A stretch of DNA of 64,000 bases, from the NCBI RefSeq assembly GCF_003334405.1, contig NZ_QOWM01000002.1; one strand, 5' to 3'. This document shows, in pieces, positions 62,876 through 63,151 of the stretch; the first letter of the stretch is position 1, and each line of letters starts with the position of its first letter. This stretch comes from Escherichia coli. GTDB taxonomy: Bacteria > Pseudomonadota > Gammaproteobacteria > Enterobacterales > Enterobacteriaceae. A program made the position numbers and the translations under genes. Below the pieces are notes generated by a model. The model did no database searches. It was given only the letters and a program-made list of their open reading frames with translations, and was not told the DNA's origin.

Positions 62876-62910
62876 CCCCGTACTGATTATGAAGAATAAT
62901 CAGTACGGGG
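62876..62910 (+). terminator. Long perfect hairpin downstream of gss
   Basis: 15-bp perfect stem ccccgtactgattat / ataatcagtacgggg with GAAGA loop, followed by A/T-rich sequence rather than a clean T-tract. Confidence 0.6.
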
Positions 62911-63151
62911 ATTAATCAAAATATTCAATATTTATATATTCCAATATTTATTCATTTCATATGTGAATATATTAACCAGTGGAATACCTGTGTTTTGATT
63001 ATTTCTAAAGGTTTTGAATGAATGCTTATTGTCTGATACACAAGAAATAACACTCTTTTTATCGTTAAAAAATGATATTTCACTTTGCCCATGCCGTTAA
63101 AGTCACTGATAATGCGTCCGTTCGTAAATTCAAAATGGCGTAATCTAATAT

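Follow-up and report, generated by a model that had tools for sequence, protein, structure and literature searches.

A long stem-loop without a U tract at the mapped 3′ end of gss mRNA, on the edge of the Escherichia-specific pitB segment

The window analysed here, a stretch of Escherichia coli DNA 64,000 nt in length, ends in a segment of the chromosome that carries yghU on the minus strand followed by gss and pitB, both on the plus strand. The gss coding sequence (61001..62860; open reading frame list and RefSeq annotation) encodes the bifunctional glutathionylspermidine amidase/synthetase. The pitB coding sequence is represented by its 5′ part, 63152..64000, truncated where the window ends (annotation, with the translation checked). 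Given that the pitB ATG occupies positions 63152–63154, the gss–pitB intergenic region extends from 62861 to 63151, a small correction to an earlier sequence-only reading of the same DNA. This intergenic sequence is identical to that of K-12 MG1655; MG1655 positions were converted as 3199523 minus the window position. The gss–pitB region was found in 5415 of 5426 complete E. coli genomes.

A perfect stem of 15 bp closed by a 5-nt loop (GAAGA) occupies positions 62876..62910 on the plus strand and begins 15 nt past the gss stop codon, whose last nucleotide is 62860. The two arms (62876–62890 and 62896–62910, 15 nt each) are 100% complementary, and the base of the stem consists of four C-G pairs. 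The predicted RNA fold has an energy of −25.9 kcal/mol, compared with −5.6 ± 2.2 kcal/mol for dinucleotide shuffles (z = −9.06); none of 200 shuffled sequences folded as well. The opposite strand gives an equally stable fold. No longer perfect hairpin exists in the 64-kb window, and 20 dinucleotide shuffles of the whole window did not produce a single stem of at least 12 bp. The hairpin is thus real and well above chance expectation. The sequence-only reading had described a perfect 15-bp stem of unusual length at this place, and both the geometry and the length are borne out.

The same reading had remarked on a missing clean U tract, again correctly: the 8 nt downstream of the stem, AUUAAUCA, contain 3 U and form no U-rich tail, and a consensus terminator scan did not flag the site. 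The 5′ flank of the stem (GUAGCAA) has no A tract, and the opposite strand is also devoid of a U run. A scan of positions 62000–64000 against Rfam 15 at a permissive threshold returned sub-threshold chance matches only (rli38 with 34 bits against 49, Pseudomon-1 with 27 against 50). In megablast searches the hairpin sequence occurred at one locus per genome (median).

The 3′ end of the gss transcript is already recorded in a public data set. SMRT-Cappable-seq of E. coli (Yan et al. 2018, Supplementary Data 1, PMC6131387) lists a reverse-strand transcript from MG1655 position 3138610 to 3136609 that carries the label ‘novelTTS’ and fully covers b2988 (gss) alone. In window coordinates, the row for b2988 places the gss transcription start site at 60913 on the plus strand (MG1655 3138610) and the steady-state 3′ end of the monocistronic gss transcript at 62913..62914 on the plus strand (MG1655 3136609/3136610, reverse strand). 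Position 3136609 corresponds to window position 62914, so that the mRNA ends 3–4 nt past the stem, with an uncertainty of about 2 nt due to trimming of poly(A) from the reads. The 3′ UTR of gss, from the end of the stop codon (62860) to the mapped end, therefore spans 62861..62914, about 54 nt. The sequence-only reading had named transcript 3′ ends lying off the hairpin as the observation that would speak against it; the published full-length data put the end at the hairpin.

In the M9 sheet of this data set 76 reads stop at the gss 3′ end, 6 pass it and 3 end not more than 50 bp downstream, with a median read-through of 212 nt; in a second row, presumably from rich medium, the corresponding numbers are 26, 0 and 1, with a median read-through of 96 nt (PMC6131387). 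Thus, about 90–96% of full-length 5′-triphosphate gss transcripts (76/85 and 26/27, respectively) end at the hairpin. The few read-through reads end 100–200 nt downstream, within the spacer and promoter region described below, and Yan et al. 2018 list no gss–pitB transcript (PMC6131387). The gss transcript is monocistronic, transcription on towards pitB is very small, and the hairpin is the structure where gss mRNA ends. The label of a novel TTS can now be tied to a specific 15-bp stem that is, as described next, conserved throughout the genus.

Conservation was assessed in a set of 80 Enterobacterales loci encoding the Gss C-terminus. A homologous hairpin is present in all Escherichia sequences (five species, including three E. 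coli lineages), with 13–15 of the pairs kept. Among the 7 distinct Escherichia sequences, 94% of cells in the alignment of stem positions are paired, compared with 27–47% when the partners are slid by 1–3 columns. In the 13 inner pairs all cells are paired, save the loop-closing pair in E. albertii. One pair shows a compensatory change, seen in E. whittamii and Escherichia sp. E1V33, in which G-C replaces A-U. One-sided changes in three inner pairs give U.G on the gss-sense strand and an A.C mismatch on the other strand, a pattern that mildly favors an RNA structure acting in the gss transcript. The asymmetry between strands is weak: few sequences were compared, and in E. whittamii the outer end of the stem carries two changes of the opposite kind.

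In other genera the sequence following gss is unrelated, yet a stable hairpin nearly always forms there, at most a few tens of nucleotides from the stop codon. By a simple rule, the hairpin is followed by a T-rich tail in 32 of 79 loci (e.g. in Citrobacter, Enterobacter and Lelliottia); by the same rule the tail is absent from all Escherichia, Salmonella and Klebsiella loci, among others. A hairpin that is nearly universal, combined with a tail that varies, indicates that a terminal hairpin after gss is a general requirement while the U tract is optional. The alternation of U-tailed and U-less hairpins among gss orthologues fits easy switching of terminator type.

The position of the hairpin also coincides with a change in gene order. 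About 40 of the 80 loci have yghU upstream of gss; pitB, in contrast, follows gss in only four (E. whittamii, E. albertii and two further Escherichia spp.), and the presence of yghT and pitB downstream is Escherichia-specific. The wide occurrence of yghU-gss next to the restricted occurrence of pitB and yghT defines the 3′ end of gss as a synteny breakpoint, and places the hairpin at the edge of the Escherichia-specific pitB segment.

Precise 3′ ends of this kind have been described in E. coli. [quoted passage not shown] The gss hairpin resembles the stem-loops of Dar and Sorek in being stable and situated directly 5′ of a precise steady-state 3′ end, in having neither a U-rich tail nor an upstream A tract, and in its location just past the stop codon of a gene with modest expression. 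It differs from them in that the downstream sequence has almost no excess of C over G, and in its 15-bp perfect stem, the longest of the 64-kb window. By analogy, the gss hairpin appears to fit the class of U-less terminal stem-loops. It is a real and functional feature, but an ordinary one, of a well-described class.

With this analogy in mind, we consider it somewhat more probable than otherwise that gss transcription is terminated by Rho in the spacer and that an exonuclease then trims the transcript back to the hairpin. RNA polymerase would run past the stem into the AT-rich spacer, since no U tract follows the stem, and would be released there by Rho, possibly with the assistance of nucleoid proteins bound to a silent chromosomal domain. 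The 3′ tail would then be degraded by PNPase or RNase II as far as the hairpin, as has been described for Rho-dependent E. coli transcripts generally. The terminal stem-loop would in this way define and protect the 3′ end of gss mRNA and keep gss transcription from reaching pitB. This order of events is favored by the agreement with the Dar and Sorek class in the features tested and by the read-through ends that fall in the spacer. On the other hand, a rut site is not evident, as the spacer has no clear enrichment of C and depletion of G: 35 C and 30 G were counted over the 237 nt that follow the mapped end, and the C/G ratio is 1.06 for the spacer and 1.33 for the promoter block. A stem base made of G-C pairs and a termination level of about 90–96% would suit an intrinsic terminator as well, and in this respect count against a role of Rho. 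A literature search pairing bicyclomycin with gss gave no match, and neither gss nor its 3′-end coordinates are present in the supplementary texts of Adams 2021 and TERMITe.

The intrinsic alternative is that the long stem itself brings about Rho-independent release of RNA polymerase in spite of the weak U tract, perhaps with the aid of NusA or NusG; we regard it as possible, yet on balance doubtful. The hairpin shares with canonical intrinsic terminators a G-C-rich base, a place right after the gene, a sharp 3′ end and low read-through (about 4–10%), and its stem, with four C-G pairs at the base, is very stable. The lack of a clear C-rich rut region downstream is also in line with Rho-independent release. 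Many gss orthologues in other genera, such as those of Citrobacter, Enterobacter and Lelliottia, have true hairpin-plus-U terminators at the same position, and the function thus seems interchangeable. Nevertheless, the gss hairpin of Escherichia departs from canonical terminators, having just 3 U in the 8 nt of AUUAAUCA and receiving no call in the consensus scan. Intrinsic release usually takes place 7–9 nt after the stem, whereas the mapped end lies at 3–4 nt. Furthermore, Dar and Sorek 2018 assigned U-less stem-loops at E. coli 3′ ends mostly to transcripts terminated by Rho.

Another explanation, which we find quite unlikely, makes the hairpin a barrier to processing: transcription would read through from gss to pitB, an endonuclease such as RNase E would cut the AU-rich spacer, and trimming to the hairpin would stabilize the upstream gss portion in the manner of REP elements. 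Consistent with this scheme, gss and pitB share orientation, an AU-rich single-stranded stretch adjoins the stable stem, and the authors of SMRT-Cappable-seq concede that some 3′ ends may come from processing. A comparison with REP/BIME elements is apt to the extent that the gss hairpin is likewise an intergenic palindrome between co-oriented genes and would block 3′-to-5′ exonucleases; still, it is single-copy and unrelated to REP in sequence, and does not belong to that family. SMRT-Cappable-seq, however, selects for primary transcripts, RNase E-resistant in the description of its authors, and among these 5′-triphosphate transcripts just 6 of 85 (M9) and 0 of 27 (second row) pass the hairpin; with so few passing, processing of a gss–pitB co-transcript is unlikely. 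The short read-through (medians of 212 and 96 nt), the absence of a gss–pitB transcript from the list and the presence of what appears from its sequence to be a conserved promoter of pitB's own also argue against it.

It is very improbable that the perfect 35-bp palindrome works as DNA (an operator, a recombination site or a mobile-element relic from insertion of the pitB segment): its place at a synteny breakpoint, where a widely conserved yghU-gss pair is followed by pitB and yghT in Escherichia only, would suit such a role, but it forms no repeat family (one locus per genome), has no Rfam or REP-like match, coincides with a mapped RNA 3′ end and has undergone three inner-stem substitutions that break the DNA palindrome while G.U pairing is kept in the gss-sense RNA.

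Three other candidates were rejected. The hairpin is not a repeat or a mobile element, being single-copy. It is not a minus-strand terminator, given that this strand has no U tract, that no minus-strand gene is nearby and that the mapped 3′ end is gss-sense. RNase III substrates are long double-stranded stems of about two helical turns that are cut inside the stem; a stem of 15 bp with a mapped 3′ end outside it, 3–4 nt downstream, is not an RNase III processing stem.

Downstream of the mapped end lies an AT-rich spacer (62915..63074), for which we found a GC content of about 23% (measured on 62911–63074). In 100-nt windows between 62850 and 63150 the GC content is 25–34%, compared with 51% for the entire 64-kb window, in which 0.18% of 164-nt windows are as GC-poor as the spacer. 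The 164 nt of 62911–63074 are poorly conserved even within Escherichia and have no homology upstream of pitA. The sequence-only reading had treated all of the sequence from the hairpin to pitB as an AT-rich pitB leader. Its AT-richness holds for the full 241 nt, and the sequence quoted there is present; as a leader, the first 164 nt do not qualify, being a poorly conserved spacer.

The spacer is a natural target of IS1. Insertions were found in three strains, at 62919–62926, 62965 and 63026. The insertion at 62919–62926 leaves pitB intact and is flanked by an 8-bp target duplication, AAATATTC; the two others accompany loss or replacement of pitB. We found no sign that these insertions activate pitB. 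More broadly, in 123 of 5426 genomes the hairpin is followed by an IS1 end at a distance of not more than about 0.5 kb, often within pitB. The spacer also contains a tandem 16-nt direct repeat (CAATATTTATATATTC / CAATATTTATTCATTT, positions 62926–62957), accompanied by overlapping imperfect inverted repeats; these are probably low-complexity AT-rich sequence and no defined element. At the other end of the spacer, the 45 nt of 63030–63074 (CTTATTGTCTGATAC...CTCTTTTTATCG) show good conservation across the pitB loci of Escherichia and are absent upstream of pitA, and could be a candidate pitB-specific regulatory site.

The last part of the intergenic region, 63075..63151 on the plus strand, has a different history. 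A sensitive blastn search with the intergenic sequence gave a second match in every genome, located directly upstream of pitA and covering the promoter, not the hairpin. These 77 nt share about 84% identity with the 78 nt preceding the pitA ATG; the figure for third codon positions of pitA and pitB is 53%. A promoter scan found a sole plus-strand promoter-like site in the region, TTGCCC-17 bp-GATAAT at 63085–63113. The −35-like hexamer TTGCCC (63085..63090) and the putative −10 hexamer GATAAT (63108..63113) are both present in 8 of 9 pitA/pitB sequences, Cedecea having TTGCCG and CATAAT instead. The site agrees with a predicted sigma-70 promoter in having hexamers at 16–18 bp spacing that are conserved in relatives. 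The block as a whole is nearly invariant in Escherichia pitB and is conserved in pitA of Salmonella, Citrobacter, Enterobacter, Klebsiella, Cedecea and Franconibacter. Judging from the sequence, the transcribed pitB leader is probably about 30 nt long. We infer that the final 77 nt comprise a promoter and a short leader inherited from the pitA/pitB duplication and held under purifying selection.

The pitB block shares with the pitA promoter and leader of Enterobacteriaceae the −35 and −10 hexamers, their spacing and the TCAAAATGGCGTAA motif, and differs at several leader positions. The stretch of about 38 nt from the −10 hexamer to the ATG is invariant in pitA of seven genera and largely kept in pitB. 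It includes a two-codon mini-ORF, ATG-GCG-TAA (63135..63143, plus strand), located 8 nt before the pitB ATG and invariant in 9 of 9 pitA/pitB leaders, and no obvious Shine-Dalgarno sequence is seen in either gene. We think it unlikely that the pitA/pitB leader is an unrecognized translational control element; if it were, ribosomes initiating and at once terminating on the mini-ORF could set the level at which the phosphate transporter is translated, or act as a gate for its translation. The hairpin is explained without any such function of the leader.

According to papers that cite Yin 2019, the small RNA MgrR is a published regulator of pitA. The predicted pairing of MgrR nt 48–69 with positions +9 to +30 of pitA has an energy of −20.1 kcal/mol, matched by none of 300 shuffles; for +9 to +30 of pitB (63160–63181) the energy is −7.5 kcal/mol and 208 of 300 shuffles are as good, i.e. 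no pairing is predicted. Judging by this model, pitB, which differs from pitA in having no predicted site at +9 to +30, probably escapes MgrR control. We rejected MgrR as the cause of leader conservation, since the predicted pairing is in the pitA coding region (+9 to +30) and not in the leader. The combination in pitB of a conserved pitA-type promoter and no predicted MgrR site is relevant to the differing expression of the two paralogues.

A silenced or regulated promoter region of pitB, as proposed from the sequence, agrees with the literature. Bryant et al. 2014 assigned ‘the pitB locus’ to a transcriptionally silent extended protein-occupancy domain (tsEPOD), where an inserted lac promoter was repressed until the domain was replaced. 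According to a paper that cites Harris 2001 and Hoffer 2001, pitB does not normally function in wild-type E. coli. Neither PhoB binding nor PhoB regulation was found at pitB by Fitzgerald et al. 2023. The locus resembles tsEPOD and H-NS silenced domains in having an AT-rich region upstream of a poorly expressed and dispensable gene, with natural IS1 insertions in the spacer. The pitB gene of E. coli O157:H7 strain 7636 carries a pseudogene annotation, its C-terminus being missing; this and the IS1 disruptions suggest that several lineages can dispense with pitB.
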